DNA of 64,000 nucleotides from Neocallimastix sp. 'constans' (Eukaryota). Of the stretch, positions 2,287-53,069 are shown piece after piece. The stretch is taken from contig JBODTK010000102.1 in the NCBI GenBank assembly GCA_050613775.1, positions 62,001 through 126,000 of the forward strand. The letters run 5' to 3'. The stretch's first letter is position 1, and every line of letters starts with the position of its first letter. The notes below the pieces were generated by a model, which was given only the letters and a program-made list of their open reading frames with translations, made no database searches and had not been told where the DNA came from. The position numbers were made by a program, and so were the translations under genes.

Positions 2287-4112
2287 TCAAGCAGTATTAG
2301 TTTTTTTTGTACATACTCCATTATTACATTCAAATTCCAAAACATTAGTTATTTTGTTATCCTCCATTGGACATGTATCACCTTTTTCAATAACTTTTAG
2401 ATTTCCACTACTACTATTATTAACATAGACATATTTCACATTATTATTGTATTTTGAGTTTAATGTAATTACTTGATCCTTTATTGATATAATTGCAAAT
2501 TTTCCTTTTGAAGTGAATAAGGTATCCTCCTCTGAGTTACTACTACCATTGTCACTATTACCTTTTCTTCCACTACCAGTTACCATATAATTTCCGTTAT
2601 TGCTTTTTAATATATCAACTGAAATTTTACCATCAAGACAAATTGAAAGTTTATTGTCTTTATAAACAATTCTTCCAATTGCATTACTGTCACATACACC
2701 AACAGTATCATCTTTTCTACAGGTAGTATTGGAACAGAAATAAATTGTATCCTTATCTACAATATAGTAACCTGTTTCTGTAATTTGTATACATTCTTTT
2801 TCTGTCTTACAATAGTATAATAATCCAGATCCAGTAGCAATATTATTAAGTGTTTTTTCATGAACAAGATAATAGGAATTTTCAACACAATTTGTTCCTG
2901 TATTAATGTCACATTCTTTTGGGCAATATTTATCATCTACTGGAATAACACTTCCTTCCCCAATTTTAATGCAAACTTTACTACCATCACTAAGGCCTAA
3001 AAAATTATCTTCATCATCTTCATTATCAACAGGATTATTTACAGTAATTGAAATATATTTAATATTTTCCGTATTAGATTGAATTTCAATAATATCTTTT
3101 TCATCTTCAGAATCTGAAGTACAAATATAACCTTTTTTTGATCCATCTTTTTCTTTTTTTACAATAACATCACCAGCACCAAAACAAATATTATCATCTT
3201 CTACAATATCACAATATTCATTTTCTTTTTCACATACAATTATTTTCCCTTCAGAATTACCAGAATTTGTATTGATAAAATATCCTGAAATATTTTCCTC
3301 TACATAACATCCTTGTTCAGTACATGTAATAATACTATCTTTTTCTTCCTCCATTGAAATATAATGATCAACTGAATTATTTGATGCTCTATTGTTAATT
3401 TTTTCGCAGTTAAATTCAGCATTACTACTATCTCCATTACTTCTACGACTTTGATGATTGACATTATTTCCTTCACATTTTATTAATTCGTTATATTTAT
3501 TTTCAGTATTTTTAGAAGCACCATCTAAGTAAAAAGTGGTTTCATTCGAATCTATTGGAAATTCAGTAATTAAACTACAGTTACCCTCACTTTTACATTT
3601 AAATAATTCATTACTTGAGTCATTTGATTTATTTTGATTTAAATAATACCCAGCTTCAGTTATTTCTGAACAGCTATTAGAAGAAGAGCATTTAAATAAA
3701 TATTTACCTGAATTATCTTCAGAACAATCAGTTCCTTTATTACATTTTGCATTAAATAAATAATATTCTTTTACACCTATCATAATAATGTATTAATATT
3801 GAAATTTTTTTTCGTTAAATTTTTTATATTTATTGGTAACTTACATCCATCCCATTGATTACTACTTGAATTAAAAGTACAGCCTGTACCTATGTATTAG
3901 ATGTTAAATTTAAATTTATTAATTAAAAAATTAAATATTTTTTAATAAAGAAATATTTTTAATTTTTTTAATTAAAATTAATTTATTTTATATTTATTAA
4001 TAACTTCTATATTTTATTATTTATTAATATATTTAATAATTGAAAGTTTAACCTGCATATACTAAATTGAATATTAATGTAATTAATAATATTATAGACC
4101 TAATATTTTCAT
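2287..4112 (-). CDS. Secreted Cys-rich scaffoldin-like protein (fungal cellulosome Sca-type GYY repeats); exons approx. 4112-4053, 3889-3845, 3776-2287
   Basis: Repeated C..C...GYY/GYF modules (EAGYYL, ISGYFI, ETGYYI) and a C-terminal YVYVN...CP...EFECNNGVC. GT-AG introns join in frame: ...LIFNLVYA-G|TGCTFNSSSNQWDG-C|VKEYYLFN. Exon 1 encodes a signal peptide but is one base short of the ATG frame. Confidence 0.75.
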
Positions 4113-7507: not shown

Positions 7508-7698
7508 TTTTAAACACTAAAATTATAGAAGTACACTTATAAAGTATGTAATATTAATATAGCATTTTTATTTATTATATAAAAACAAGATTAACTACAT
7601 TTTTATGAACTATTTGTAATTTTCTTATCTTATTTTGTTTGTATGTAAAATATGATTGGTAGACACTATGTTCGACACATTAATATTGTCGTTTAACA
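7508..7698 (-). repeat. 3' LTR of the copia element
   Basis: Direct repeat of 12819-13009; on the minus strand it reads TGTTAAACGAC...GTGTTTAAAA. Confidence 0.95.
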
Positions 7699-7713
7699 CT
7701 CCCCCTCAAATCT
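7699..7713 (-). other. Polypurine tract
   Basis: Minus-strand AGATTTGAGGGGGAG lies directly before the TG of the 3' LTR. Similar tracts occur at 20180, 34049, 40312 and 54232. Confidence 0.9.
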
Positions 7714-7743
7714 AACTATCCGTAAAGATATGTGAGATTTGTC

Positions 7744-10700
7744 TCAGTGGTCTTTCACTTCCGTGAGTAGTGAATTTCTAAATTTGTCCATTAGGGAGTT
7801 ACAAAGATACTTTGTAAATCCATCGGCTAGATTTTCTTTAGAATTAATATATTTCAAATTTATTTTATTTTCCTTAATAAGTTCCCTTACGTGATGATAT
7901 TTGATGTCGATATGCTTTGATCTTGAGTTTATTGATTGATTCTGACAGTTGTATATTGCGGCCTTATTATCAATGTTAATGGTAACGGAATTTATATTTA
8001 TATTCAATTCGTTTAATATGTTCATGTACCATAGGCTATGCTTTGCACACTCACTAACACCATAATATTCCAATTCAGCAGTAGATGTCGCTACACACTT
8101 CTGTAGCTTAGAATACCAGCTAGTTGGCGCATTTCCAATCATCATCAAGAATCCAGAGGTTGACTTTCTCGATTCGGTGTCGCCCGCGAAATCTGCATCC
8201 ACGTATACCTTCAACGACCTTTCCTTTGTGAATTTTATCCCGTAGTTTATAGTATAACTCAGATACTTGAATATTCGTTCAACATTGGCCCAATCCTCTA
8301 AAGTTGGATTCTTATTCTTTCTAGCAGCCCTGCTTACGGCGAACATTATATCAGGCCTAGTACAGACAGCTAGATAGATTAATTTTCCAATTGCACTCCT
8401 ATATAATGTTTCGTCGCACTTTCTTTTTCTTAAATTAAGATTCTCAATGGGTTTCAAGTTTTTAACGGGTAAGCAATCTTTTAGTTTAAACTTAACTAAT
8501 AATTCTTTTATGTAACCTCGTTGTTGCATGAAATATCCATCGTAATATTTTTTAAATTTTATTCCAATGACGAAATCAATATCACCTATATCTTTAATAT
8601 TAAAATATACTTTAATTTGTTCTTTTACATATAAAATTTCTTTTTATTTACCTATCAGTAATATATCATCTACGTAGACCGCTACAATACATAGAACCTC
8701 TTTTGATTCGTTTTCCATGATGTATAGGCACGGTTCACTAATTAATCTTCGGAATCCAATCTTTGTGAGTGTGTTGTTCAATGTCTCGTTTCATTCTCGG
8801 CCTGCCTGCTTTAATCCATACAAGGCTTTGTTGAGTTTTAAGAATCCTTTGTTGTGCATCGGGTGTCCCTTTGGTGCCTTGATATAGATGTTTTCATTTA
8901 GGTCGGCATTTAAGTATACGGCGTTAACGTCAATTTGCATTATTCGGTAGTTTCTTTGTACTGCGAGAGCAACGATAATTCATAGTGAGTCTAGTTTTAA
9001 TGTGGGGGAGAAGGTGAAGGTATAGTCTATTCCATACCTTTGAGTGAAGCCTCTAGCTACTAGACGGGCTTTTCTTTTTATGATATTCCCATCGGCGTCC
9101 CTTTTATATTTTAGTACCCACTTACAGGATATGATATTAGCACCAGTAGGTAAGGATTTGGTGGTATTGAAAACCTTAAGTTTTTCCATTTTCTTAAGTT
9201 CCTCGTTTATGGCTTTTAACCAGTCGTCTTTGTCAGGTAGGCTAAAGATGTCATCAAAGTCATTTGGTTCTTTGAGTTTTTGATTATCATTACGTTTTCT
9301 GGTGTTTATTTGGTTTAATTCAGTGGTTGTGTCGTTTGTTTTGTTTTCATTGTGTGAGGAAATATTGTTATAATTTATCTTATTGCTGTTGTCGATTTGT
9401 CCATGCGAGTTTTGTGGATTGTAAGAAAAGTTATTAAAATTATTAAATTTGTTTAACATATAGGTGTTGCTCCCCCTGATTTCGGAAATTGGCATAAAGT
9501 TTGGGAAATTTCTAGGAACTGGGAGAGATATTTTGGAGTTTCCAGGAGTATCTTCGAAGAATTCGACTGAACGAGAGAGAACGATCTTATTATTAGCTAT
9601 GTTCAGAATTTTATAGGAATTAGTTAATGGGTGATAACCCAAGAAGATACCTGGAAGGGAATTATTGTCGAATTTGTTTCGTTGTGATTTAGGAACAAAG
9701 AAAAAGACCTTACAACCGAAGACTTTAAAATGTGAATAATCCATTTTAGTTTTGAATAATAGTTCAAAAGGGATTTTGTTGTTGATGCCAGAGTGGGGAA
9801 TACGATTCTGTATGTAATTAGCAGTGTCTACCGCGTATTCCCAGAATTCTTTACTAAGTTGTGAATCATTAAGTAGAGATTTAGCTGAACTAATGAGGGT
9901 GCCATTAAATCGTTTAGCTCTCCCATTTTGTTGAGGATTATGAGGGATAGTGAACTGTTGAACAATACCTCTCTGAGAGCAGAAATACTTGAATTTATTG
10001 TTCGTAAATTCCGTACCATTGTCGGTACGAATGTAAGTGATGGTCTTATTAAATATATTTTCAATAGATTTAACCCATAAAGTGAACTTTTCGAAAATGT
10101 CACTCTTGTTTTGGATGAAGAGGACCCAACCAAAACGAGAATAGTCATCAAGGATGGATAGGAAATATTTATTGGAATGAATAGATTCTACTACTGGACC
10201 CACTAGGTCCATGTAAATTAGTTCAAAAGGAGCTTTGGCTCTGTTGTTTGATTTCCGATGAGGTAAGTTTCTTTGTTTTGATTGAGAGCATATTGGACAT
10301 TTAGATTTGATATTAATTTTTAATAGTTTATTTTTAATAGGGTTAATGTTGAAGTGCCCAAGGCGTCTGTGCCATAAATTAATTTTATCTAATTTGTTTA
10401 GAGTAGAGAGGTGCATCAATAAGGTTTTGTTGTGTTTTGGTTCGTTGTTTGAAATTAGCTTGTTCGATAGCCATAAAGTAAAAATATTCTGGCTGTTTGA
10501 ACTAACGTTAATGATTCTTTTGCCGGAATCATTGTAAATGGTTAAATAAGGTTTGTTGTTGTAATTGAAAAATATAATTTTATAGTGTTGTTGGATAAGT
10601 TTGGTAACTGATATTATATTTTTGTTTATGTTATCGACGTAGAACACGTTCTTTAATATAAATTTTGAATTGTCAATATATCCGGTAAAATTACCGTAAG

Positions 10701-11922
10701 CGGAGGCAACAATTGTCTTACCGTTTGGGAGAATAACTTCTTCATTACATTTTTTAATATCTGTAAGTAAGTCAATACATCCCGTGATATGTATGGATGC
10801 TCCTGAGTCTATTATCCATTGTGATATGTGGATTTGTGGATAGTGGTTATTGCTGACAGTGTTTGTAATACAATTTAATAATATCCCATTTTCGGTATTA
10901 CGGTCTTCGAAAATATCTTGAGGTTTTTCAATGGCGTTCACTTGATTCTTACGTTGGTTCCTAATATACTTGGAGGTACTTGGAATGTTGTTACAATAAT
11001 TCTTTCTGAGGTTCTTTTTGAATGGTTTCCTTTTGAATCTGTATTTGGCCTTGTTTCTGCATTCATAAGAGTAATGTCCAAAAGTACCACAGTTGAAGCA
11101 TTTACCATTTTTTCTTTTTCTTGTTGTGATAACCTTAGAAATTTTGTTCCTATTCTTGGCTTGGGATTCAACTAGGAACAATTTGTTCTCTTCCGTCTTG
11201 GATATCTCTCTAGTGTTGGAGAATATGATGTCTGGAATGACATCCTTAACGTAATTGCAGAGTTGCTTCCAATCATTTTTATATTGGAAAACATTTATAA
11301 ACCTTAGGTTTTCAGGGAGTGACCTATTCAAAATACCAGCCTTGACAGGGTCACTTAACTCATAGTCAATATTTTCTAGCTCATCTATTGCGTTTTGGAG
11401 TTTAGCAATGAAAATGTTAATGTCGTCTTCTTCGTTGTATTTCAAATTATTTATTTTGCTTTTAATTTCAAGTTTCCTTTTCTCTGGACTCATTGTGAAG
11501 GACTTTTCTAATGTAATCCATATTTGATGAGCTGTCTTTCCATTACCTTCAATTATTTTCTTTGTATTCTCTCCTAGGCTGTTGGTAATGATCCATTTTA
11601 CCATCACATCGTTTTTTATATCTTTTAACGATGTGTTCTTATCGTATACTAGGCTGGGGTCAAACTTGTCTTCAAGGTAGTTATCAAGGTCATCCCTAAG
11701 ATTTCTTTTTCTAAGTTTCTTTATTTTTTCTTCTATTACGTATCCTTCAAGGTTGTTAATCATCAGAAGATATAGAATGTTCGTTCTCCAGCTGGGGTAA
11801 TTTTCTGTAGATAGTTCAATAACACGATTGAAATTTTCCGAGTAATTGAACGTGATACCTTTTGTTAAGGTTTCATCTGTGTCATCAATAGTTATAGGTA
11901 TGTTGTTTCTGTTTATACTCAT
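7744..11922 (-). pseudogene. Copia gag-pol polyprotein in a single frame, inactivated by two in-frame TGA stops
   Basis: Zinc knuckle CFNCGTFGHYSYEC, protease WIIDSGASIH, WHRRLGH..CPIC, integrase IYMDLVGP/IRTDNGTEF, RT KARLVARGF and YVDD, RNase H YVDADFAGD/NLADGFTK. ORFs 8980..11922 and 7744..8529 share a frame, with stops at 8980-8982 (DSL*II) and ~8791-8793 (GRE*NE). Confidence 0.95.
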
Positions 11923-12118
11923 ATTGTTATCTCCCTTTTGAATTTTGGATAAATGTTTTCTTAATAAAAAATTTTTTTTGTTCGTTTACTAAGTCTTTAA
12001 GAACTTTATGTTAGCATATGATGTGATTGAATATTGAATGTTTGTTTGTTTTATTTTATTATATTATTTAATTTAATTGGTTGAAATACTATTATTTGAT
12101 TTGTTGAATGATTAATAC

Positions 12119-12181
<63 letters not shown>

Positions 12182-12674
12182 GTTAAATTTAATTGGTTAA
12201 GTAATAATTATGGTAATTTTAATGTATTTAAATTATTGGTTTAAATTTTGATATTAAGGTTTTTCATTGTTTTATATATCTATATAGGAATAATTAAATT
12301 CACCTTTAATTTATTATTAATTTAATATATATTTTTATTTTAAATTCTATTCGATAAATTATTTGTTTATTCATTTGTTCTTAACGCGAATTATATTTCC
12401 TTTTAAATCTTATTATTTAATTGAAATTTTAATAAGATTTAGTTTTGTCACTGACTATTTTCAGTGTGACGTTTATTATTTGCTGCTGACAATTCAGCGT
12501 AGCATTATTTACCTTTTATTTGCTGCTGACTATTTCAGCATAGCATTATTTATTTCTTATCTATGTAAGCCTTTTTTTTTTTTTTTTTTTTTTTTTTGTA
12601 TATAAATTAAAAAAATGAATTGTTTTTCATCTTTTAAATATATATGTATAATGTTGAATTTGATTAAAAAAATT

Positions 12675-12705
<31 letters not shown>

Positions 12706-12804
12706 GGTATTTTAAGATATTAATTAGTAAGAATATATTTTATTATTTATTTTTTTTATACTATATATATTTTAATACTTAGCTTTATATGAGTTGAGGT
12801 GAGA

Positions 12805-12818
12805 TGAGACTCTTAATC
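12805..12818 (-). other. Primer-binding site complementary to the anticodon arm of tRNA-Lys(CUU)
   Basis: Plus-strand TGAGACTCTTAATC matches the anticodon stem-loop of eukaryotic tRNA-Lys(CTT) as recalled, and it abuts the LTR with no spacer. Confidence 0.85.
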
Positions 12819-13009
12819 TTTTAAACACTAAAATTATAGAAGTACACTTATAAAGTATGTAATATTAATATAGCATTTTTATTTATTATATAAAAACAAG
12901 ATTAACTATGTTTTTATGAACTATTTGTAATTTTCTTATCTTATTTTGTTTGTATATAAAATATGATTGGTAGACACTATGTTGGACACATTAATATTGT
13001 CGTTTAACA
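12819..13009 (-). repeat. 5' LTR of the copia element
   Basis: Direct repeat of 7508-7698. Confidence 0.95.
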
Positions 13010-17862: not shown

Positions 17863-19027
17863 ATGTACTATTTTTTAAATTTAATAACTTTTTTTATTAT
17901 AAGTTCAAAATGCCTATCTAGTAAAATTGAAATACCTGGGAGAGAGTCTTCATTGACATTTTTATCGAAAAATAATATGTTTAACTACAATGAGATATCT
18001 AATTTAGTTGTTTTTGGGTAATAATTACTTTTATTTAAATAATTTAAAAAAAAAACTAACTATATATAAATTTCTTTAAATAAATAGAGATTCACATTCA
18101 TATTCTGAAACAAATTTTAAAACAATGGAATCTTCAAAGAAGGTTTACTTTAACTTCTTTATTAATAAGATAATAATTATTTATAATATTTTTAATTAAT
18201 ATGATATTTTTTTAAACAATAAAAAAAGTTACTTGCTAATAGAAAAAATTGGCCAGTACAACTTGCTAATATACATAAAATGAAATTATGGAATTTCGCT
18301 TTAAATGGTTCTGTTGTTACTTTAGAATTGTAATTAATATTTATATAAACTTATTTAAGTTTAAAAAATTATTTTTAATTAATATTTTTTTTTTTTTTAA
18401 AGAGGTTGTGAATTTAGAAAAAAATATAAAGATTTCTTAAAACAATACAATTTATTTTATGAACGAATGAGTCATGGGAAAATATATTTTAATGAATGGA
18501 ATAGTAATAATACATTATTTTCTATATATATGGGATCTAACGATATTAATGATATTAATTTTATTTATAATAATAGAACTATTAATGAAAATATTAATTA
18601 TATAGTTGATATTATCTTTGATAAAATTGAATGTATAAAAGAAATTGGAGGAAATAATTTTTTAATAATTAATATTCCTCCTTTTGATAAAGCTCCAGTT
18701 AACTCTAAAAATAAATATAATTATTTTATAGATGAAATTTTTTTTTTTAACAATTTATTAAATAAGAAAGCTGAAGAATTGTATAAAAAATATAAAGATA
18801 TAAATATTATTATATATAATATTAACAATGAATATAAATATATTATGAAAAATTATAAAAAATATAATTTTATTTCGAGAAATAATGCATGGAAACTAAG
18901 CACAAACAAGGTATTCAGTAATCTTGATGATTATTTTTGGCGAGATAATACTCATATATCCAATAAGGCTAATAGAATCATCGCTGAAGATATAAATGAA
19001 TTACTAATATCTTTAAATAAAAATTAA
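17863..19027 (+). CDS. Secreted SGNH/GDSL hydrolase (CE16-like carbohydrate esterase), 4 exons
   Basis: ATG at 17863 begins the signal peptide MYYFLNLITFFIISSKCLS. Splicing three GT-AG introns gives NLVVFG|DSHS (block I), NWPVQL..LWNFALNGS (block II), YMGSND (block III) and FWRDNTHIS (block V). Confidence 0.88.
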
Positions 19028-19670: not shown

Positions 19671-20865
19671 TTATAATTATCTCTAAATATTAAATAAATT
19701 TTTGTAAATAATTTTCTTTTTAATAGTATAAAAATTCCTTTTTTTCCTTTAGAATAAAATTTTTTAAAATTATATTTATATTAATAAATTTACTATTTTT
19801 AATAAATTGGAATTGTATGTGACTAAAATATTGATATAAATTTTAATTATTTCAATCCTAATAATGTGTATTGAAAAGGGTTAGGGTTAGAAAGGAATTA
19901 TTTTTTTATATAAAAAATACAAATAAACTAAAGCTTAGAAAAAAAAATTCTAGAATTTTAATATTTAATTAATATTTTTTAGAAATAAAAATAACTTTCT
20001 TATATTAAAAATATTAGAATCATGTTCAAAATAATAATGTACATTTTTATGTTATTTATAGTTAACATAATACGTGACTTATTATTATTGGTCAAATATT
20101 TTACATGAATATATTAAAATATATATTATTTCTCCTTAAATTAATATAATTATAAAATTTTATATTTATATTTTTAACATTCCTCCTCAAATCTAACTTT
20201 GGATAAAAGTTATAATTGAATAGAAATATAGTGTTTGTATTAAAATATAAAATAATATTTTTGTTTTAATATGATTAAACAAAAAATTATAAATTTATAA
20301 TATTTTAAAAGAGTATGAATGATATTATATTTATATTTTTTATATTAATATTATGTTTTAATATTTTTATTATTTTATAATTTACAACATAATCTCTTTG
20401 GTCTCTTCTTCTTAATATGTTTCATTATCATTATTAATTTTATCATCATTTTCATCATCTAATTATTAATTATTTTAAATATTTTTCTTATTTATTATTT
20501 TATTCATATTTTTTGAAGTATTTATATACTATCTATATTTATAGAATAATTACCATGACTATCTCTAAAATCTATTTCATTAAGGGGTAGATTTGGTTTA
20601 ATATCTAAGTTAACTTCAGAAGATTTTAAGATTTCATTAATTATACTACTTCAATATCATCATATTTTTATTGTCTATCTTCTACATCTCTAATTTCCGT
20701 TGAAAGGAAATGTTTTTGAGCTTTTAACTATTTTTTTTTTATTGTTCATTTATTTTTGTTGTTATATATAAAATATTAATAATTTTTTTTTATCATCAAT
20801 ATATATAATTGATATTATTAATTTTTAAATTAAAATATTTATTTACTAATTTATTTGAATAGATA

Positions 20866-21406
20866 TTAGATAATTAAAAGTCCAGGTGTTTTAAGACGTA
20901 TATGATCATATAAAATACCATCGAATTGATAATTATTAGTATATTAATCAGTCTTATTGGCACATAGAGTAATTTTATTTTCTTCAATTCTGAAATCATT
21001 AGGTCTAATTTTGAATTCTAATTCACTGTAGAATCCTCGAATACCATTGCGGCGAACACAGACATCATCTTTAAAATTGGCAACTTCAGCTGAGTTCTTT
21101 CCTTCATTGATAGAGACTGAAAATAAGGTAGAACAACTAGCTGCAACCGAAACACGTAATTGATGTGTACTTGGATTAAAATTGTTAATAGAGAAATTTG
21201 GACTAATACCTAAAATACTATAAGTCCAAAAAAATAACGACGCTGTAAAATTTCCACGTTATTTAACATATCCTGGTTGACAAACAAATGAATATTATCA
21301 TTTATCTTTTTCAACTTTGACTACTGATTTAGCATCTTACAATAAAGCTTAAGGAGTCTCTGTCTTATTCAAATAAATTAAATATGGTCTATAAACTTTT
21401 GACCAG

Positions 21407-21437
<31 letters not shown>

Positions 21438-22200
21438 TTTCGGATATTCATCTCTTGCACCATAATAGGAACCAGCCATGCATATTATTACTAAGGAATC
21501 ATTTTCACCTTGATGACAAGCAAGATCATAATTATAAACACCTCCATTTTTTCATTCCGCTGATGGATTCACAAACTAACAACCTAAACCATTTTTAGCA
21601 GTTAAATCATGAATATCAGGTTTTAATGCATCAATTGTCCAATCATCTTTATGAATAACTTCACCTGTTTGTATTTTGCAAGTTTCTTTTGGAGCTAAAA
21701 CCTTACAGTTCTTTTGTTGTTCAGGGTTTGGTAAATAACGACCAACATCGTATTCAACTTGTAACCAACTGAATGGATTTCTTTTTAATCTTTAAATTGA
21801 ACAAATTTCACTGAATTGATTATCATGATAATTAACTTTATGATCAAGTTTTAAAGAAAATACTTACTCTTAGAATCATTAAGAATAGTATTATCTAACT
21901 TCCCATTTCGTATTTGATACATTATTAATGAAAGAAATTTTAACATGTTCATTTGTATTCTTAATTGTAAAACTTCTTTCACATGAAAGCCAGATTTTGA
22001 ACTATTAGTATCAATATAGGATCTATTTAAAAAATACTTGATTGTTACTAGCAATCTTTAATAAATAATATAACTATCTTTCTTAGAAATAAAAACACTA
22101 AGGTAGTTATTCTTTAAAATGTATGAATTATTGTTTTGTATCGAATTGACAGCATAAACAATAGAAGCCAAGAAGGTATCATTCAAAAAAGTTTTATGTT
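20866..22200 (-). pseudogene. Rhamnogalacturonan lyase (polysaccharide lyase family 4) relic
   Basis: Stitched frames read GRYLPNPE..TGEVIHKDDW..IHD..FVNPSAE.KNGGVYNYDLACHQG..SYYG..ENWSKVYRPYLIYLN..DAK..RG, then LRVSVAAS..RNGIRGFYSELEF..ENKITL..DGILYDHIRLKTPG. These parallel PL4 motifs such as WKKVFGPVFIYLN, RHGIHGLY and GIMYDYIRLE. The middle domain appears deleted. Confidence 0.82.
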
Positions 22201-23974
22201 AAATAAACTATGAAGGATTCTCTCTTTCTTCTATTTTCTCATTTAATATTTTTCATGGATTAATTTTTAATTATTTTTCATTTAGTGATTATTAGAATAA
22301 AAAAAATAACGTCTTTCTAATTATAATTTATAATCTACAACACAACAAATATATTATTTTTATTTTAAAATTAAAATTTATTTATCAGTAGAATACTTAT
22401 TGTGATTTATTGTACTTTTTATAGTTATCATTTACTTTAATAAGACTTCATATTTCTAACTTACAAAAAATATATGTGCTAATTCCTGGGGCCCTTTAGT
22501 AGATGTATTAATTTATTTTGGCATAAACTTAAACAAAATGGATAAAAATATTTTAAATATTTTAAGATGTTGAATTTTAAATTATAAAATAAATTTGTAA
22601 CAGTTGTAATTAATCCAACTTTTCGTTTTTAAAAGATAATTCCTTAATATTAATCATCTCAATTGCAATAACAACAATTTAAATATAAAACTTTATTTTC
22701 AAATAAGAACTTTTTATTGACTACTTTTAATTTTATTTTTAATAACAGCTGTCGAGGATTGTGACATTCAAATAGTTTCTTATCTATTAATAATGGATAA
22801 TGTATAAATAAATATTAACTATAAATCCTTTTGTGGCTGCATTATATTTAAAAATATAAATAATAAATAAATATTTTTTGTTGTAAATTGAATAATCCAA
22901 AATTTTGTTTCCAAAAAGTGACATTTCTTATTGGTATTCGTATAGAATATCTTTGGTTTCAAAGGAGAGCTTCTTAATATCCACAATTTCAATATTCTTT
23001 CGTCAAAACCATCTTCCCCTGATCAGGTTATTTCAAAACATTTATTTCCATTATTTAGGATCTTTTAAGAATTTATATATTTACATGATTCTATTTTATT
23101 TACAATTTCTAAATTCTTTTCATTGTTTTTAATGTGATTTTATATTTATTCTGTAATAATTCTTTTTAATTTTATTATTTTTCAAATAACTAATAAACAA
23201 ATAGAATTTCATTCTAAAAATCAAATTTAACACTTCAATTTATCAAATAAAACTTATTTTGAATATCGAAATTACATCACATTGAAAAATAAAATCATTG
23301 AATTCTCAATCATAAATAATTTCTTATAGCTTTAAAGATTAATTATCAAAACTTAAAAATATAATTTATTAAATAAATTTTCATAATGATACTTTCAAAG
23401 AATATTGTAAATTCTAAATATCAATTATTAACAAGTAAATATTTCGTTAAAGTTCTTTTTTTTTTAAATCTTTAACATGCATTTGATACATTTGATTTGT
23501 TTTGTTAAAAAATTTAAATAGATATTATTAATTAAAAGTTAGTAATATAATCAATTATACAATTAATAGATCAAATTTTATTTGTTTTATTTTAATTATA
23601 AAACTTTAATTAATATTATTTGTATTGATAAATTGAATTAAAAAAAATATACTCTTGATTTTAATTGGTAAGACAAATATTATATATTAAAGTTTGATAA
23701 TGTTTAATTCTGTTGGATCTTGATTTATTAATTAATATAATTAATTATTTTTAGAATTCTCATTTGAATTTTTATTTATATTTGAATTTAATAAATTGTA
23801 ATTTTTATTATATTAAGTTAAATAATACGAAACTTTATTAAATAAAGTATTAATAATATTTAATTTATTAATAATTTTGATTTAATAAAATTCTAATTAT
23901 TACTTTTCTTTAATTTATTAATTTTTACTCTAATATAATCAATATAATCAGTTGATTATAAATTATTTTTTATC

Positions 23975-24131
23975 ATGATGATGTTAAGTTTGCGTTCTTA
24001 GGGATTTTATCAAGTGTTTCATATACTCTCAAATTTATCATATTGTTGAGTTCATTATCGACTGATTTTAATCATTCGTTTTTATCATTTAAATTAAAGA
24101 TATCGTAATAATTATTTGGTTCATGTAATTC
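23975..24131 (-). pseudogene. Short copia pol relic (start of RT) inside the cargo element
   Basis: ELHEPNNYYDIFNLNDKNE*LKSVDNELNNM..KIPKNAN parallels EPNDFDDIFSLPDKDDWLKAINEELKKM..LPTGAN of the intact element. Confidence 0.75.
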
Positions 24132-24229
24132 TTTTAAATTTTTTTTTTTTTTTTTTTTTTTTGTGATAGTTTTAATTTACTGTATGATGTAAATATATAT
24201 ATTTTGATTGTTAATAATTAACAATAATA

Positions 24230-24434
24230 TTTTCAGTTCAAATTAATTATTTGACTGACCATATAATTTTTCAGTTCAAATTAATTATTTGACTGACCAT
24301 ATAATTTTTCAGTTCAAATTAATTATTTGACTGACCATATAATTTTTCAGTTCAAATTAATTATTTGACTGACCATATAATTTTTCAGTTCAAATTAATT
24401 ATTTGACTGACCATATAATTTTTCAGTTCAAATT
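24230..24434. repeat. Perfect tandem array, 5 x 38 bp plus a partial unit, hairpin-forming
   Basis: The unit cagttcaaattaattatttgactgaccatataattttt starts at 24234, 24272, 24310, 24348 and 24386, with a partial copy at 24424. Confidence 0.95.
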
Positions 24435-26804
24435 GTAATTGACAAATTATTTTATTTTATTTTATTTTTTTTTTTTTTATTCAAGTTATAATTTGACTGA
24501 GTATAACATATATATATTATTTTCATCGAATTATAATATTATTAAATCATATTAATCCTTCATAAATTTATTTTAGAATATTCTGACAATATATTTTAAT
24601 TCTGTTATTATGAAAATGACAAAATTAATTATAAAGATTATAATTAATTATATTATTTCTTTGCTCGAAGTTATATAATTTTATTAATAAATATAAAAAT
24701 AAAAATGATGTTGAATATTAAAAATAAGAAAGTGTTAGTTCAATTTGTTTATAAATTGAATGTATTTATATATATTAATTGTATAAATTATAACTTAACT
24801 TTTAGTTGAGCTCAGTTGTAGGCTGAGACTCTTAATCTTTTAGAAATAAAAATAACTTTATTATATTAAAAACATTAGAATCATGTTCAAAATAATAATG
24901 TACATTTTTATGTTATTTATAGTTAACATAATACGTGAATTTTTACTATTATTGGTCAAATAATTTACATGAATATATTAAAATATATATTATTTCTCCT
25001 TAAATTAATATAATAATAAAATTTTATATTTATATTTTTAACAATATTAAATTATAAATTATTTTAAATAATTTTTAATTTTAATTATAAAAAATTATTA
25101 TAAAAAATTGAAATAAAATAAAATATAATAAAATATAATAAAATAAAATAATATAATATAATATAATATAATATGATATGATATGATATATTAAAGCCTA
25201 TAATATACTTAATTTATAAAAAAATTATTTTATTATAAATTTAATATAAAAATTTATTTATATTTAATTTATATTTGATTTACTTTTAATTATTTTATAT
25301 TAAATATTTATTTTATTTTCCGAATTTTGAATTTTATTAAATAGTAATTATAATTTTTTTACAATAAAATTTAATTTTAGGTTTATAATTTATGATATAA
25401 AACGTAAATAAAAACTTTAATTATTAATAAATTATTTTATTAATAATTACATAAAAGTAAATTAATAAATCATTTGCAAATTCGTGACATAAATAAAACG
25501 TGATCGAAAATAACGTGATAAAATTAAAATTATGTAACGACATAAAATTATGAAAGAACATAAAAATTAATGTAAACATAAAATTTATAACATAAATTTT
25601 ATGTTATGTTAAAATTGAAATAATTTATAAATTTCTTTTTATTATTTTTATTATTTTTATATTGATATTTTATTTTATTATATTTTTAATTATTTTTAAT
25701 AATTATTATTTTATATTAATATTTTATATTTTATTAATTATAATAAATTTATATTTTTCTTATTATTTTATGAATATTTTATTTTAATATTTTATATTTT
25801 ATTTTATACTTTTATATTAAATACTTTAATACTTAATAGTTATTCTAAAAGAATTAATTAATTAAATAGTTTATTATGAATTTCAAATATAAAAACAAAA
25901 ATAATTCTTTATAATTATTCCTTGCAGCACAGTTTTATGCCAAAATTATAATTATTTTATATTTTCGAGATAATAAATAAATACATGTATTAATTAATTT
26001 TATAATTATTTTTAAATAAATAAATAAATTTTATAATTAAATAAATACTTAAATAAAATTTCTCCCAACAAGAGAACTTGAATCAAAGGCATCTTTATTA
26101 TTTAATTATTATAAAAAATGATTTAAAAAGATATTAAAAATTTAATTTCATATAAATTTAAATTCAGTATACAATAATTATTAATAAATAAATATACTAT
26201 TTTTATATACTAACCCTTTTAAAATATTAATATGATAATATCAGATATATATAAGAAGAATATTGATTTTCATTAATAGTTGTAATGTAATTAGAAAATT
26301 ATTAATTAAAATTATTTATTAAAATTTTTTATATGATATTTAGAGGAAATTTAATATCTTACGTTCGTATGAACTAAATATTTTTTTTATAATGAAAAAA
26401 TAAATTATAACTATAAAATAAATTCCATTAAAAAAATTACAATAATATTTATTTAAATAATTTATATAATTGTATTATTTAAGTTATTTAGAAATATTTT
26501 AATTTCAATTAATTTAGTTTAATACTGAATTCTTTATGAAGGCTTAAAATTTCGTAAAAAAATTAAATATATATTTATTTTTATAAATTAAATTAAATAA
26601 AAATTGATTTTATTTATCAATTTATATGAATTATTACATATTAAAATATTTCTTATTAATAATTTATTTTTATTCAGTGATTTGTTGTAAATAATTTATT
26701 ATTAAAAAATTTTATTATTATTATATTATATAAATAAATGAAAATTTTTTAATTTTTTTATGAGTATTAAATAATTTAATATTTCTTATTTATCTATTAA
26801 TTTT

Positions 26805-37494: not shown

Positions 37495-38619
37495 TTATTC
37501 AATGAAATTACCAAATCTTTTTATAAACCAATCTTTGTCTTTCTCTACTTTAAAAAAAAAATCTTTATCTTTTTCTACTTTAAAAAAATTTGTTTTCTTT
37601 TTTGGATTGCCAATATAGGGAAATTTAAAATCGTGTTTAACATAGATAAATGCATTTTCTAATTTGTTTATATTAAAAAATGATTTGTTATATTTAAATC
37701 CTTTATAATATTCAATAAATTTATTAATTTGATTATGATGTTGGCCTAATGAATATATACTTAAATAACCTTTATACAAATTTTTATTTAAAATTAATGA
37801 TTGAAATGCTGAATAAGTTCCTTTATAATTATAATAACAATAAATTTTATAATCATTTTTAATATCATCATTTATCATGGTAATTCCATCAATATATCCT
37901 TTAAAATATAGTGGTATACTAATATTACATTTATTTTGTATATCTTCCACAGCATCGTTATATATTAAATCATCATGATTAATTCTTGTTGTTATTACGA
38001 ATTTAGCTTCTTTAGTGTTATTTATGATATATTTATCTGTTAAATTAGAACGAATTACATTTATATTTATTGAAGATTCTATTTGTTTTAATTCTGATAT
38101 TGCTTTATTATTTTCTGGTAATTTATTATTAATTTTTATTATAATTTCAAAGTTTTTATTACTTTGATTTTCTAAAGATTTCAATGTAAATTTCTTAAAA
38201 ATATTAATTGCATTATGTAAGAACGAATAATTAAATATTTTTTCTTTTTTCATCAAGATATCTGAATAAAACCGAATAATAATAAAATGCTTGATTTCAT
38301 TAGTGTAATTTATTTCATCCATTGTTTCTTCATGGGATAAAAGTTTTATCGTGGAGTTTTTATTTTCAGTAATTATATTATTTTTATAAATTTTAATATT
38401 TTCTGAAGTTTTATCTTTATCTAACATATCTAAAGAAGGACATTTTTTACAAAATCTTTTAAGTTTTCTATTATTATTTTTGTTATTACATCTTTTCTTA
38501 CAAAGTAATAATAATTTTTGATTCTTCAATGCTCGCTCATTTAAAGCATAGTTTAATTTAACAAATAATATAGTAAAAATTAAAATGGTAATAGATAAGA
38601 ATTTGTTACTTATTTTCAT
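37495..38619 (-). CDS. Putative glycosyltransferase of the bacterial 'putative rhamnosyltransferase' type, with an N-terminal signal anchor
   Basis: Intronless ORF with likely start MKISNKFLSITILIF. Motifs HFIIIRF, F.KFTLKSLENQSNKNF and ITTRINHDDL resemble the RF..LPSL..QT..DF / TRxDxDD pattern. Confidence 0.65.
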   Translation of the reverse strand: MKISNKFLSITILIFTILFVKLNYALNERALKNQKLLLLCKKRCNNKNNNRKLKRFCKKCPSLDMLDKDKTSENIKIYKNNIITENKNSTIKLLSHEETMDEINYTNEIKHFIIIRFYSDILMKKEKIFNYSFLHNAINIFKKFTLKSLENQSNKNFEIIIKINNKLPENNKAISELKQIESSININVIRSNLTDKYIINNTKEAKFVITTRINHDDLIYNDAVEDIQNKCNISIPLYFKGYIDGITMINDDIKNDYKIYCYYNYKGTYSAFQSLILNKNLYKGYLSIYSLGQHHNQINKFIEYYKGFKYNKSFFNINKLENAFIYVKHDFKFPYIGNPKKKTNFFKVEKDKDFFFKVEKDKDWFIKRFGNFIE

Positions 38620-39299
38620 TTTTTTTATATATGAAATAATTTCTATAAGAAGAGTATTTATATTACAGAGTAATATTTTTGAATCCATTTGCTAATTTAT
38701 ATTTTTTTAATGAAATAAAGTGATTTAAGTTAATACCTCTTTAATTTTTAAATTTGATAAATTTTATTTATTTTAGATATTTTCCTTTCAATTATGAATT
38801 TTATTAATTTAATTAATTTTTTAAATATAATTTTTATTTCTAATTTTAAATTTAAAAATTAAAATTTTTAAAATATTCAAATATTTACTTTAAAATATAT
38901 CATTTTATTATTATTTAGTTCAGTTAATTTAAAATCCATTGTTTTGAGAATATTTAATTCATTTTGTTGGAATTGTTCATTTTTGGAAATTTAATTATAA
39001 ATTCAAATTGTTAGACATAATTTATTACATGTTTAATGTTTTAATATGTTTATTTTTATTTTGAAAATATAAATTAATCTTACAATATTTATTTAATATA
39101 AAACATATTAATTTTAAAATTTTTGTATTATTTAATTTCCGATACTAATATTTAAATTAAAAATTTTATAATTTGTTAATAATATATTATATTCTGTATT
39201 TAAAAATATAATAGTATTTATTTATCCTAAGAGAAAGTACTATTAAAACATTTATTTATTTTATTTTTTTATTTTCAACTTTTAGATTATTTCAGTTTT

Positions 39300-40090: not shown

Positions 40091-41225
40091 AAATAAAATC
40101 AAAATTTTTTAGAAATAAGAATATTTTTTATTGTATAAAAATATAAGAATAGTATATGAATATAATAATGTACATTTTTATGGAATTTATAGATAACATA
40201 ATATGTGGCTTATTGCTATTATTGGTAACATATTTTACATGAATATATTAATATATAGCATTACTACTTAAATTAATATAATTATAAAACTTCATATATA
40301 TATTTCCAACATTCCTCCTCAAATCGAACTTTGTATGAAAGTTTGAGTTGAATAAAAATATAATATTTGTATTACAATATAAAATAATACTTTTGTTTTT
40401 AATATTATTATATAAAGAATAAATTATAAATTAGAGTTATTATAATATTATAAGAATAAGAATGATATTATAATTTTTATATTAATATTATGTTTTGATT
40501 CTAATCATACGAATAATTTGAAAAATTATGATTCACTTTTCTTTTCATTCTTGGAAAAGATTAGACTTCTTACTATTATTATTTCCCTTTCGGTGTTGAA
40601 TTTCATATTTTATTACTTGCATTTTTCTTTGGTATAATTGATTCATCAATAGTTACTGCACTAATATATTTTTCAATAGTATCTAACTCTAGTTGTAAAT
40701 CATTATTATTATTGCTTTGTACGTTGAAAATTGTTTGACTTTGTACAGGGTAATTATTTTTTTTTTTTTAAATTTCTCTATCTACTTCATCATAATTAAT
40801 TTCTTCATCATCTAATTTTAGAATATTTAAAATTTTGGAAGAATTGTTTTTCAATTTTAACTTTTTTTTTTTGTTGAGTCAATATATACTTTTATTTAAT
40901 TTTGTGAAATACTTACATATTTACATATATATATATATTTTATAATTCTTATATTATGTTATTTTGTCATTTATATTTTATTAGTACATTTTTAATTTTT
41001 ATAATTATTCTTTTTTTTTTTTTAATTTTTTGTTTTTAATAAATTTTATTAATATTTTTTATATTTATTTTATATTTTATTTACTTTTTTATATGTATAC
41101 TAATTTTATTGCTCATTTATTTTTTATTGTTATATATAAATTAATTTTATTTAATTATTAATATAATTGATATTTTTAATTTTTTAAATTAAAATATTTA
41201 TTTACTAATTTTTTTGATTAGATAT

Positions 41226-41431
41226 TTTTCGAAATAAAAATATCTTTATTATGTTAAAAAATAAGAATCATATCATTTTATAAAATTATTCATTTTTATG
41301 ATATTTATAGTTTACATAATGTATAACTTATTATTATTACCTATCATATATCTTAAACAGATATATTAAAATGTATAACATTACTCTTTAAATTAATCTA
41401 ATTATAAAACTATATATTTATACTTCTAACA
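41226..41431 (-). repeat. Solo LTR of the same family inserted at the PL4 3' end
   Basis: Homologous to the 40107 LTR; flanks GATAT and GATTT give a 4/5 TSD match. Confidence 0.75.
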
Positions 41432-41700
41432 GATTTTAGATACATAATACCATAAAAGTGGTAATTATTGGTATATTCTTCTGTCTTTCTGGCATGTAAA
41501 ATAATCTTATTTTCTCTAATTTGAAATCATTGTGTCTAAATTTGAATTCTAATTCATCGTAGAATCCTCGAATACCATTGAGATGAACACAAGTATCTTC
41601 TCTTTATTTGGTAACTTCAACTGAATTCTTTCTTCCATTGATAGAGACTGAAAGTAAAGTAGAAGAATTAGCTGCAACTGAAACACGTAATACAGGTTTA
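41432..41700 (-). pseudogene. PL4 rhamnogalacturonan lyase C-terminal domain relic (second copy)
   Basis: LRVSVAANSSTLLSVSINGRKNSVEV..LNGIRGFYDELEFKFR..YTNNYHFYGIMY is clearly homologous at DNA level to 20915-21160. Confidence 0.85.
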
Positions 41701-44700
41701 CCAGTGGGTTTCTTTATCAAATTGAAACAACATGTTTAGTGATTTGTAAATCTTCTTTATAATCATTTAATGGTGATTCCCTTGGTGAATCTTTTGGTCA
41801 ATTTATAGGTAAATCTCTTGGTAAATCTCTAAGTAAACCTTTTGATAAACATAGAACTGGAATATTTTCAGTTGTTTAGAAAACATCAGAATTTTTTTTA
41901 TTAATGTAAACACATGAACCATCACTTAAGGAAATTGGATAACTAACATGAGATTGAATATTATTTAGTAAAATCTTAATTGATAATCACATTCATAGTC
42001 ATTATTAAAAATAATTAATTTATCGTACAATCCACCTATTGGGTAGTTTGGTTTTGGACTAACTTAATTTAATGAACTGTATGAAATATCATTGTCACAA
42101 TTTTACATATGATTTTTTCTCATAAAGATAAATCCACATATAGCAACTAAAGTAACTACACTTGTATCAGACAAAGAGATAATAACAACACAATTTGAAA
42201 TAATAAGTTTTTTCATTGGAAATTGAAATATTGATTTTATTTCCAGCTGCAATTGTTGCTTGAACATTATTGTATGGTAATACTAAAGGATCATAACTAA
42301 CATTAATAAAAAATAAAACTAATAATGATATACTCAAAGTTATCAATTTTAAAACAAATTTATATTTTATTTTTATTTCTTTATTTTAAATTTTAGAAAT
42401 TTATTTTTATTCAATGATATTTTTACTATTATTTGTATTCTATATAGATATGTATAAATCTTTCAAATTAAATTTTTATTATTTATAAATATTCTTTTAT
42501 ATTTATTAATTTTTATAAGCTTTTATAATAGGTTCATTATTAATATAAACTACTTTTTAAAAAATATACAATATATATATTTAAAAAAATATATATAACT
42601 TTATTGTAGAAACTGAAATTTTTAAAATAAATATATTAATAATACAATTAAAAGATTACAATGAGATAATGTTATAATTACAAATTATAAAATCTTTTTC
42701 ATATATATATAATAATTTTGAAAATTTTTTTTTATTTTCAATTATTCAAATTATTCAAATGTAAAATTCAATTATAATATTTTTTCTTAAATAAATAATA
42801 TATTTATATTATTTATTTATTTAATTATTTATTTACATATTTTTTATATCACCTTATTTAAGTTACTCAAATTAATTATTTGACTAATTATTTAAGTTTC
42901 TATTATTGTTGACAAATATTTATTTATTTTAATAAACATATGGTGAATTATTATATTATCAATGGAGTATTGTTTATATTTTAATATTACATTTTAATTT
43001 ATTTATTTTATATTATTTTATCTTGAAATTCTATATAGTAATGTTTTTCAGTTTAATCATTATTTACTGACTATCAAGGTATTTTATTTATTTTATTTAT
43101 TATTTTATTTTCAGTTTAATAATTAATTAACTGATTATTCTTTGTATTAATAATGATATATTATTCATGTTGAATTTCAGTTTAATTAATAATTAACTGA
43201 CTATTCTATTCTTTTTCAGTTTAATCAATGATTAACTGACTCTTTTTTATTTTTTTTTCAATTAATAAAAGATTAACTGGCACTTCTTTTATTTTTAAGT
43301 TTAATAATAATTAACAGCTTATTTTTATTTATAGTTGTATTTGCATTAAATATAAAATATTATTTTACTTCTATTTAAAAATTATTACCTGTTTTTTCTT
43401 TTAGTACATAAAATTATGAATATGAAAAAAAAATTAGTTATACTATTTTAATAATAATTATACTTCAATATTAAACATAACTTAATTTTGAAATAATCTC
43501 AGATACAGACTTGAGACTCTTTATCCTTTAGAAAAATAAAAAATCTAATTTCACTTTTTTATTAAAGGAGTTATTGATGAAATTTATATTATAATATATT
43601 TATATATATTAAAAAAAAATAAATTTAATTTTTTTCATTTAAACTTTAGTAATTTTAAATAAAAAATATTTAATTATTTTCATGTGATTATTAAAGTAAA
43701 TATTTAAATTTTTATAAAAAATTTCTTTTAAATATTTTGTGTTTTTTTTTATTAATATTATCAATTAAATTGTTTTTATTATTCTAAAAAGTCTTTACTG
43801 TTTATTTAAATTATCACATTAAATTGATAAAATTTATAACATGTTTTATGAATTTATACTTTAATATTTATGATTAACACAAAATTTTATTTTGAAAACT
43901 TTTGAAATTTATATTTATTTTCATCCTGTAATAATATTAATTTTTCTAAAAAAAATGATAATTCTCTTTTTTATTAGTATTACCTATTAAAAATATTTTT
44001 TAATTTGTTCAATTAAATAATTAAAACTAGTACTTTATATAAATAATTTAAAAAAATCTCTATTCATTTATTAGAATTATTTATTTAAAAAATGTATAAT
44101 TTTTACTTATTTTAATAAAATATTAGAGTAACTCTAATATTTAATAGTATTTATTTAATTTTTTTATTACAAATTATATTTGTTAAAATTAATGAATTAT
44201 TAATAGATAGTAAAACTAATTAAAAAAAAGATCAAAAATTTTATAGTATCAATTCATATAAAAATATTTATAGAATTTAATATAACTCTTTAAAATTTTA
44301 TTTATAAAATATTTATATATATTATTTCTTTTTATCTTTAAAAAAATAATTTATTTTTCTTAACATATATATATTTTGTAGTTGGATAATTTATAAAATT
44401 TAAATATTATTTTTAAAATATTAATATATTTTTATATATTAAAAGTAAAGTTATATTCTCAATATACATTGTATATTGAGAATATAATTTTACTAAAAAT
44501 ATATTATACAATATAAAAAATAAAAAATTTCATTAATAGTATAATAGAAATCTTAAATATAAATTTATATGTAAATTTATAATAAATTTTAAATATTTTA
44601 AATTTAAAATAAAAATTATGACTTTCACGTATAATTTAAAAATAGATATAATATAAGTTTATCTTTAAAATATTAATATAAATTATTTATCAAAACAATA

Positions 44701-45087
44701 GTATTCATAATATTGAGATATAATTTTATAATTATTTAAATAAGAAAAGTATTAAATATTTAAAATGCTAAATTAAAATTATTTTAAAAAATAATAATTT
44801 TTCTCATGTAATATATATTTATTATTTTTTTACATATTAAAAATGATATTTATAAATTATTTAAAATTTTTATTAAAAAATTATTAAATAAATATGAGAA
44901 ATCAGTGTTAATAATTATAATTCAATAGTTTTCTAAATTTAAATAAAAATAAATAAGTATATATGAGACATAACTCTAAATAATTTGTATGATATTATTA
45001 CATATACAAAAATTATTTAAATTTTATTAATTTTAAAAATTATTTTGTATTTGATTTTAATTTTATTACAAATATTTGGACTTTTAT

Positions 45088-46374
45088 ATGGATTTAATTA
45101 GTAATACTACAATTCAAAAAAGTAGAGTATATGATGATTTTCATTCAAGTAATGAAAATATATCTAGAACTCAGGAGGATCGAAATCAAATGCAAATAAA
45201 TATTTCAAATTTAACTCCTAATATTCTGACTTCTATTACTACTGGGAGTGAAGCTACCCTCAATGAAAGTCTTCCATCTCTTCAACCTAAAAAAAGAAAA
45301 CGTTTATACTGGGCTGATTGTGCTCGTATCTTCTCTATGTTTGGAATTATTTTATTACATAGTGCGGGTTATGGATGTGAAAAAACCCTCCTCAAACGAA
45401 AAGACTCAAATGTAATGATCATTTGTTTCTATAATTGTATGACTCGTTTCGGCGTTCCAATGTTCGTCCTACTTTCAGGAACATTTATTCTTGATCCATC
45501 CAAGACTTTCTCATTCAAAAAATTGTTTAGACATAATATTTTGAGATTAGCAACAGCATTTGCCTTTTGGTCATCAATCAATGCATTAATTAATATTTTT
45601 CTTTATAAAAAGAACAAACCGTCTGAATTCTTAAAAATATTTGTAGTTGGTGAAGAGTATCTCTGGTTCATATTTATGATTATTGGTTGTTATCTTATTT
45701 CACCTTTTTTACGCCTTTTTTCTGATGATGTTACTCTTGCCAGATATTTTTTAGGACTTTGTGTTTTTTGGGGATCGTTAATTCCAACGCTTAAAAATAT
45801 TTTTATTTCTTATCATTTGAAGGAAGCTCAAGACGAGTTAAACATATGGACTAGTCGTTGGCATTATCATTTTACTTTGGAATTTGTAGGGTATTTTGTT
45901 GCCGGTTATCATATTGTCAATCATGTCAATATTAAATCATTAAAAATTCGAGTTCTACTCTATGTATTAGGATTGGCTGATGTTTTTCTTATTTTTTATA
46001 TGACCTATAGTCTGGAAATGAAAACTGGACGTTATTCTAAAGATTTTCGTGATAGTTATACTTTAACGGTAGTATTCTATACAGTAATACTTTTTATTTT
46101 TTTTAAACATGAAATTGGACAAATTAATTTTTCAGAAAGGGCCATAAGAATAATTTCAAAATTATCGTATTTAACTTTCGGCATGTATCTCTCTCATATG
46201 ATTCTGAAAGGCTTATTATCGAGATATGCCCACATAAAACAAGAAGAATTTTTAGGTATAAAATTTAGTTCAACTATCGGCTGTCCCATTTTTTGGATTA
46301 TTATATCTGGAAGTAGTTTACTCGTAAGTTATCTCTTATCAATTACACCAATTTTAAAAAATTATGTAGTGTAA
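45088..46374 (+). CDS. Acyltransferase family 3 (membrane O-acetyltransferase, WecH/OafA-like)
   Basis: RLYWADCARIFSMFGIILLH, RFGVPMFVLLSG, YLWFI, GYFVAGY and SYLTFGMYLSH are AT3 hallmark motifs. The ORF is intronless with many TM segments, and the first ATG is at 45088. Confidence 0.92.
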   Translation: MDLISNTTIQKSRVYDDFHSSNENISRTQEDRNQMQINISNLTPNILTSITTGSEATLNESLPSLQPKKRKRLYWADCARIFSMFGIILLHSAGYGCEKTLLKRKDSNVMIICFYNCMTRFGVPMFVLLSGTFILDPSKTFSFKKLFRHNILRLATAFAFWSSINALINIFLYKKNKPSEFLKIFVVGEEYLWFIFMIIGCYLISPFLRLFSDDVTLARYFLGLCVFWGSLIPTLKNIFISYHLKEAQDELNIWTSRWHYHFTLEFVGYFVAGYHIVNHVNIKSLKIRVLLYVLGLADVFLIFYMTYSLEMKTGRYSKDFRDSYTLTVVFYTVILFIFFKHEIGQINFSERAIRIISKLSYLTFGMYLSHMILKGLLSRYAHIKQEEFLGIKFSSTIGCPIFWIIISGSSLLVSYLLSITPILKNYVV

Positions 46375-52269: not shown

Positions 52270-52495
52270 TATTAAAAATATAAAATAATAAGTTTTATAA
52301 TTATATTAATTTAAGTAGTAATGCTATATATATTAATATATTCATGTGAAATAATAATAAGCCACATATTATGTTAACTATAAATATCATAAAAATGTAC
52401 AATATTATTTTTCATAGACTATTATAATATTTTCATATAATAAAAGATATTCTTATTTCTAAAAGATTAAGTGTCTCAATCTTACCAGATTGACC
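52270..52495 (+). mobile_element. LTR (~52270-52464) plus PBS
   Basis: Homologous to the 39300 and 40107 LTRs; ends TTTCTAAAA, followed by gattaagtgtctcaatcttaccagattga. Confidence 0.75.
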
Positions 52496-53069
52496 AAAAA
52501 CAAGTAAGTTAAGTATTCAATATAATAAGATTATTTCCTATTATAATACTTAATGTAATAAAAATAGTAAAAAATTAGTAAAGTCAAACAAAAATAAAAT
52601 TAAAATGTTAATTTTTAATATAACAAATTATATTAATAGATAAATCAAGAACCAACAGAATTAAATATTATCAAAGTTTAATAAATGGTCTATATCTTAC
52701 CAATCAAAATTAATAATACTTTTTTTTCTAAATCAATTTATCAATATGAATATTACTAAATAAAGTTTTATAAATATAGCAAAACGAATAAATTTCAATC
52801 TATAAATTGTATAATTAATTATATTACCAAACTTTAATTAATAATATCTAAATAAATTCATTAACGAAATAAATTCAATGTATAATAATCAAATGCATCA
52901 AAACCATCACTATCATGACAATTATTAAATCATAATAATTCAAACAGTCTAATATATGTTAAAACCTCACAAAAATCTAAATTTAAACTATTTTTTAAAG
53001 ATTTGCAAAAATTTTAAAAATGGACAGGTAAATGTAGAAAAATAAATTAAAAAGTTACTAAAATTCGGA

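Follow-up and report, generated by a model that had tools for sequence, protein, structure and literature searches.

How does a gene for a plant cell wall-degrading enzyme come to lie between the paired long terminal repeats (LTRs) of a retrotransposon, and does such an arrangement supply its host with new enzymes? We examined this question in a stretch of 64,000 nucleotides from the gut fungus Neocallimastix sp. 'constans' (contig JBODTK010000102.1, positions 62,001 to 126,000; referred to here as the window), an AT-rich region with a G+C content of 8 to 35% per kb. An initial annotation, made from the sequence alone, had described an LTR element at positions 19977 to 25043 (minus strand; element A here) in which gag-pol was replaced by a rhamnogalacturonan lyase of family PL4. 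We conclude, with a probability of roughly 80%, that element A is a Copia-derived non-autonomous element whose dead PL4 gene was likely captured once from host mRNA by template switching and was likely recopied several times after it had broken. What this process visibly yields is not new enzymes but pseudogenes at dispersed sites, which gene-finding programs record as fragments of PL4.

Architecture of element A and its PL4 cargo

Element A is bounded by an identical pentamer, ATATT, on its left (19972 to 19976) and right (25044 to 25048) sides. Its size is within the 4 to 6 bp expected of a target site duplication (TSD), and the probability of such a match arising by chance in these flanks is 0.011. 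The 3' LTR (19977 to 20179, minus strand; 203 bp, TGTT...AAAA) and the 5' LTR (24838 to 25043, minus strand; 206 bp) were in direct orientation; they matched at 197 of 203 aligned bases and differed further by a single 3-nt insertion/deletion. Their identity to seven other LTRs of the same family aligned from the window was 73 to 85%. A polypurine tract (PPT; 20180 to 20194, minus strand) lies directly inside the 3' LTR, and a 14-nt primer-binding site (PBS; 24824 to 24837, minus strand) lies directly inside the 5' LTR. The LTR, TSD, PBS, and PPT assignments of the initial annotation were thus confirmed. The same PPT recurs inside the 3' LTRs of two relatives described below, copy B (at 40312) and element E (34049 to 34063), and three other elements of the window have an exact copy of the PBS. 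The LTR ends are not the canonical TG...CA; TGTT...AAAA ends are common to most LTRs of the family and to a near-complete Copia element in the window, and we read them as a probable lineage trait.

The PBS was complementary at 14 of 14 positions to nucleotides 28 to 41 (anticodon arm) of a 75-nt tRNA-Lys(CTT), which ARAGORN detected in one viral locus among 80 containing the motif and which may differ from the tRNA of the host. Half-molecule priming, the mode used by Drosophila copia and Ty5, is therefore predicted. An Rfam search of the PBS region returned two matches, both attributable to chance.

Read 5' to 3', the interior consists of a 38-bp tandem array in the leader (24224 to 24434; 5.5 units, 99% matches), a 159-bp remnant of the Copia integrase-reverse transcriptase (IN-RT) linker and RT start (23976 to 24134, minus strand), a spacer of approximately 1.8 kb (22178 to 23975, minus strand), the PL4 relic (20869 to 22177, minus strand), a 3' segment of approximately 0.7 kb (20195 to 20868, minus strand), and the PPT. 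The RT scrap and the PL4 sequence had initially been taken as the whole interior; both are present, alongside about 2.5 kb of unassigned spacer and 3' segment. The remnant matched residues 902 to 954 of the Copia polyprotein encoded in the window (41.5% over 53 amino acids [aa]; E value, 3e-7), i.e., the IN-RT linker and the first RT residues, and had no Pfam match of its own. The matched polyprotein has the domain order of Copia (Retrotran_gag_2, rve, RVT_2), indicating a Copia ancestry for element A. Intact gag-pol is absent, and the 53-aa remnant is the sole trace of pol. There was no Pfam match in the spacer, and the best score of an Atlas search with one of its frames (67 aa) was an uninformative 0.80; one part of it (23477 to 23832) recurs at 52534 to 52898 (79.5%), directly after the PBS in another element of the family. 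The 3' segment is common to sister elements. Similarity of the 5' leader between elements A and E, and between element A and copy B beside the PBS, was within the shuffle range.

The PL4 relic lies in the sense orientation of the element and takes the place of its internal open reading frames (ORFs), as in LTR-mediated retrocopies. The Pfam CBM-like domain (PL4 domain III) matched 1 of 18 frames scanned (38.6 bits; cutoff, 27), and a profile built from 12 intact PL4s covered positions 11 to 318, 357 to 383, and 504 to 600 (best independent E value, 2e-80), so that the PL4 identity proposed initially holds. The N-terminal pieces gave no Pfam match; an intact-type PL4 (P0001) matches PF06045, PF14686, and PF14683. 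The relic spans residues ~11 to 600 of a 600-aa parent, and sequence comparison identified its source as the short, dockerin-less form of PL4 ending in TPGL. It carries at least nine in-frame stops, frameshifts, a 20-nt poly(A) expansion, and two deletions (deletion 1, ~114 nt at ~21243; deletion 2, 375 nt at ~21159) that removed most of domain II and part of domain III, leaving neither an open frame nor the three complete domains of a functional PL4. Deletion 2 is associated with a 5-nt microhomology (TTACG). Deletion 1 starts at a donor-like AG/GTAAAT and ends with GG in the transcript used for comparison; a single additional substitution at that end would give a spliced cryptic intron, which is only a hint of cryptic splicing.

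At the DNA level, the relic was 78% identical to L004, a contig that resembles a transcript but is not the direct parent of the relic. Three contigs from one presumed RNA run (X16) matched the relic, all at <95% identity and continuing as unlike sequence, and provide no evidence either way on expression. A metagenome scan with P0001 yielded 12 transcript-like loci (1.9 to 3.3 kb), in which LTR matches were confined to low-complexity runs and thus gave no information on flanks.

Dispersed relics and a second cargo

Further copies were sought in the window itself, in protein databases, and among publicly available contigs. A search for PL4 proteins of 100 to 319 aa returned 11 proteins. The junction left by deletion 2 (NFNPSTHQ/LRV) was present in P0052 and P0054 of N. 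lanati and in P0063 of N. 'constans' and N. californiae. P0052 and P0054 represent two N. lanati sites, on contigs of 1,513,079 and 114,498 bp, respectively. All three proteins have the same out-of-frame N-terminal peptide as the relic of element A (25 to 27 of 26 to 27 aa) and end at the codon of its stop. P0051 contains the junction but reads through the stop position, and P0055, P0058, and P0071 have the changed C terminus of the relic, yet retain the sequence deleted in element A. P0060 and P0078 continue into sequence resembling the 3' segment of element A; their C-terminal parts match positions 20528 to 20605 (61% over 26 aa; E value, 0.001 to 0.002). P0053, P0056, P0057, and P0059 are parent-type PL4s. 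In domain III, P0061 and P0050 do not differ from element A; they may represent this very locus in a closely related strain and were not counted as copies.

At the amino acid level, the sister relics were 83 to 87% identical to the copy in element A (i.e., 13 to 17% apart), compared with 75 to 77% over domain III for intact Neocallimastix PL4s, which are 94 to 100% identical among themselves. In a tree of 17 rows and 94 columns, from which P0050 was left out, all nine relic rows were placed apart from the eight intact rows (support, 86/88). The deletion-bearing P0063 (ORY63596.1) and the near-intact P0001 (ORY63614.1) have accessions 18 apart in N. californiae and may share a scaffold, which makes this a candidate capture site or local hop.

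For contig mapping, the 544-bp 3' part of the relic served as the only reference. In run X1, 81 contigs fitted these 544 bp, and two records (7 and 8) bridged the deletion-1 junction with five and four other letters, respectively; record 13 of run X12 also bridged it. A contig of run X12 joined PL4 domain III directly to the spacer of element A (21 of 21 bases at 22708 to 22728; 0.00 expected). A second loose end in run X12 had no match anywhere in the window.

An older relative of element A, copy B, occupies positions 40107 to 43525 (minus strand). It comprises a 3' LTR of the family (40107 to 40311, minus strand) with an adjoining PPT, a post-PL4 segment equivalent to that of element A (score, 152; shuffle maximum, 64), PL4 domain III (41440 to 41736, minus strand; 207 of 252 bases identical to element A), leader repeats of 39 to 41 bp related to the element A array (43175 to 43315), and a PBS (43512 to 43525; 13 of 14). 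Deletion 2 is absent from copy B, and a solo LTR (41226 to 41431) with a 4/5 target duplication is inserted at the 3' end of its PL4 relic. Its frames had no Pfam match, and additional PL4 sequence upstream of 41736 was rejected as unsupported by profile or DNA searches. Two further parts of copy B (40500 to 40900 and 41830 to 42385, minus strand) are coding-like, are not PL4, and may be further captured fragments.

A second cargo was found in element E (29879 to 34270, plus strand), whose LTRs (29879 to 30087 and 34064 to 34270, plus strand) are 85% identical. The element has a tRNA-Lys-type PBS (30088 to 30101, plus strand) and a PPT inside the 3' LTR on the plus strand, and its sense strand carries a pseudogene of arfaptin (PF06456, AH-domain; 33035 to 33749, plus strand) with about 80% identity to P0033 over residues 12 to 249. 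The parent gene corresponds to ORY42437.1 and KAG4096746.1. Two metagenome ORFs of the parent type, P0037 (ending in KG plus GIVVLYFI) and P0038 (starting with LKIRL plus DEA), break at KG/DE (longest contig for both, 11,742 bp), and their extra residues fit a phase-1 GT...AG intron. The relic reads through this point (KLKGDEVV) and is continuous across the putative intron, which points to mRNA capture by this LTR family. In N. lanati, four degenerate models, each on a contig of its own, share 12/28, 14/29, 13/24, and 5/19 of the differences between the relic and its parent; some of these are ancestral residues and about nine are derived. The arfaptin cargo of element E has therefore likely multiplied as well, judging from these shared substitutions.

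Elements A and E and copy B all carry their cargo in sense, immediately upstream of the 3' segment and the PPT, and the nearest named relatives of both cargo genes are Neocallimastix proteins. The sequence comparisons make it well supported that at least two host genes, PL4 and arfaptin, were captured by this LTR family. The proposal that the element was non-autonomous and moved as a unit with its PL4 cargo finds support in the LTR pair and in dispersed sisters sharing the deletion junction.

The timing of these events can be ordered. The two LTRs of an element are made identical at reverse transcription; the 3% divergence of the LTRs therefore dates the insertion of element A. The sisters are 13 to 17% apart yet share a deletion and a stop position, from which we infer that the cargo was dead before the last rounds of copying and probably before the copies multiplied. 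This agrees with the initial annotation, which had this copy moving after its cargo had decayed.

Proposed mode of capture and competing explanations

In the proposed mechanism, the LTR promoter would transcribe the whole interior of the element, and Gag, RT, and integrase would be supplied in trans by a helper Copia. A tRNA-Lys half-molecule would prime the minus strand at the PBS, the PPT would prime the plus strand, and integration would leave the 5-bp TSD. The short dockerin-less PL4 form would have been captured first; its C terminus would then have changed to TPGLLII, followed by the two internal deletions, the stop in domain III, and finally multiplication and the insertion of element A.

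The main alternative is that the mobile unit was the same and PL4 entered it as DNA, through ectopic repair or recombination. A parent-type PL4 ORF (188 aa, on contigs up to 5,079 bp) is uninterrupted over residues 171 to 358, and the parent thus looks intron-free over at least this region, so that the absence of introns from the relic carries little information. Capture of an mRNA, as initially suggested, is supported for the LTR family by way of element E but remains a proposal for PL4 itself. We nevertheless consider entry as DNA improbable, because two independent cargoes occupy the same position in sense, gag-pol was replaced rather than interrupted, and the arfaptin cargo shows the exact loss of a putative intron.

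Less probable still is segmental duplication of one LTR-flanked locus, with only element A, or no copy, having transposed. Copy B is only 15 to 20 kb from element A, as this explanation would allow, and the copies on other contigs were compared within the interior of the element. Against it, element A has its own TSD, and its similarity to copy B reaches only ~40 AT-rich bases past the LTR. Moreover, its LTRs are far closer to each other than the element is to its sisters, and its reverse transcription therefore postdates the shared lesions. Two independent LTR insertions around a resident PL4 pseudogene might be entertained given about ten family LTRs in 64 kb, where neighbors are common, but are very improbable, because the pair is 97% identical against the 73 to 85% background, the TSD matches, the PBS and PPT lie inside opposite LTRs, and copy B has the same PL4-to-PPT-LTR arrangement.

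Several observations weigh against capture from mRNA followed by recopying. The candidate helper Copia (~7.5 to 13.0 kb) shares the PBS and termini of element A, but its LTR is only 53 to 54% alike. The parent-type PL4 ORF is uninterrupted over the region given above. The arfaptin intron is deduced from protein calls, not DNA; no TSD was found at element E, and no 5' LTR was recognized in copy B. The relic clade, drawn from 94 columns, is not starred at its support of 86/88, and decayed sequences on long branches can be pulled together. The depth of contigs does not equal the number of copies, and a run may contain more than one strain. Dispersed copies with shared breakpoints, the mark of secondary retroposition, were found among both gene models and contigs, compared within the interior of the element.

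Known systems, CAZyme content, and neighboring features

The structure found here matches LTR-mediated retroposition with secondary rounds, which is known from flies, from Bs1 of maize, and from assays of Ty elements in yeast (PMC5131818 and PMC5470649). As in element A, host sequence in sense replaces the ORFs between the LTRs in retrocopies of Drosophila and other animals (Tan et al. 2016; PMC5131818), and shared switch points and mutations at dispersed sites mark secondary retroposition there as well. Element A differs in belonging to an early-diverging fungus and in carrying a near-full-length carbohydrate-active enzyme (CAZyme) cargo that was probably dead before it multiplied. Maize Bs1 is likewise a non-autonomous LTR element with captured host exons, present in one to five copies sharing switch points (PMC5131818 and PMC5470649), but it joins pieces of three genes, whereas here there is one identified gene per element and the cargo differs among sisters. 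In yeast, Copia-class machinery (Ty1) also copies cellular mRNA in a fungus; those retrosequences were induced or screened in assays (PMC5131818), whereas the Neocallimastix case is natural and common to several assemblies. The Copia lineages Osser, Bryco, and Bianca resemble element A in half-molecule priming, with a PBS that pairs with the anticodon arm and not with the tRNA 3' end (PMC6317226); the plant survey describing them lists only half tRNA-Met and half tRNA-Ile, compared with the predicted tRNA-Lys(CTT) and TG...AA termini here.

The plant-like PL4 ("Rhamnogal_lyase") of anaerobic gut fungi, the parent family of the cargo, has been described (10.1101/401869), and neither "retrotranspos" nor "LTR" occurs in the main text of that source. 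We found no report of LTR-mediated gene capture in gut fungi, secondarily amplified with two cargoes, in the literature searched, a coverage that excludes most subscription journals. The mechanism is already known; the natural, secondarily amplified, two-cargo case in gut fungi is apparently new and comes from a lineage whose CAZyme counts are very large.

The initial annotation went further and proposed the element as a possible route for CAZyme amplification, for which the LTR-driven expansion of pepper NLR genes (PMC5664825) is a model. Functional genes resulted in pepper; here, all of the element-type PL4s seen were broken or partial, and they do not support the proposal. Among the listed PL4 models that are intact or nearly so (585 to 600 aa; 15 of 50 cluster members), the majority have neighboring accessions and lie, in each assembly, on a single contig (1,379,994, 753,462, and 1,218,416 bp), a clustering that fits tandem DNA duplication better than retroposition and suggests that the intact copies may have arisen in this way. 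Two near-intact PL4s (P0001 and P0014) sit on contigs away from the main clusters, which keeps the idea alive at low odds. It is doubtful that the half-tRNA-Lys-primed Copia family would be a general vehicle for mRNA capture that also delivered intact CAZymes such as these and contributed to the CAZyme expansion of gut fungi. Some Neocallimastix gene models annotated as "PL4" or "hypothetical" are likely pieces of element-borne pseudogenes and would inflate CAZyme counts.

Further family LTRs lie at 6686, 39300, 41226, 49451, and 52270. The last of these begins a region (52270 to 53578) in which a family LTR and PBS are followed by the spacer segment shared with element A and then by minus-strand frames (53117 to 53578) without a Pfam match, possibly another cargo or a host gene. 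In the near-complete Copia element (~7508 to 13009, minus strand), the LTR pair is 98% identical, and two frames encode gag-pol (1001 aa) and RT/RNase H (299 aa); with the same tRNA-Lys PBS and TGTT...AAAA ends as element A, it is a candidate helper despite its different LTR. A truncated relative of it lies at 26805 to 29825 (plus strand). The tRNA-Lys(CTT) anticodon-arm PBS thus occurs in two unrelated LTR families (12805 to 12818, 24824 to 24837, 26995 to 27008, and 30088 to 30101). Long single open frames are present at 18401 to 19027, 37495 to 38691, 45061 to 46374, 47860 to 48666, and 2287 to 3792. Pfam matches among them were to GDSL lipase, putative rhamnosyl transferase, acyltransferase-3, and GT2, and one further frame encodes a cysteine-rich repeat protein that may be scaffoldin-like.

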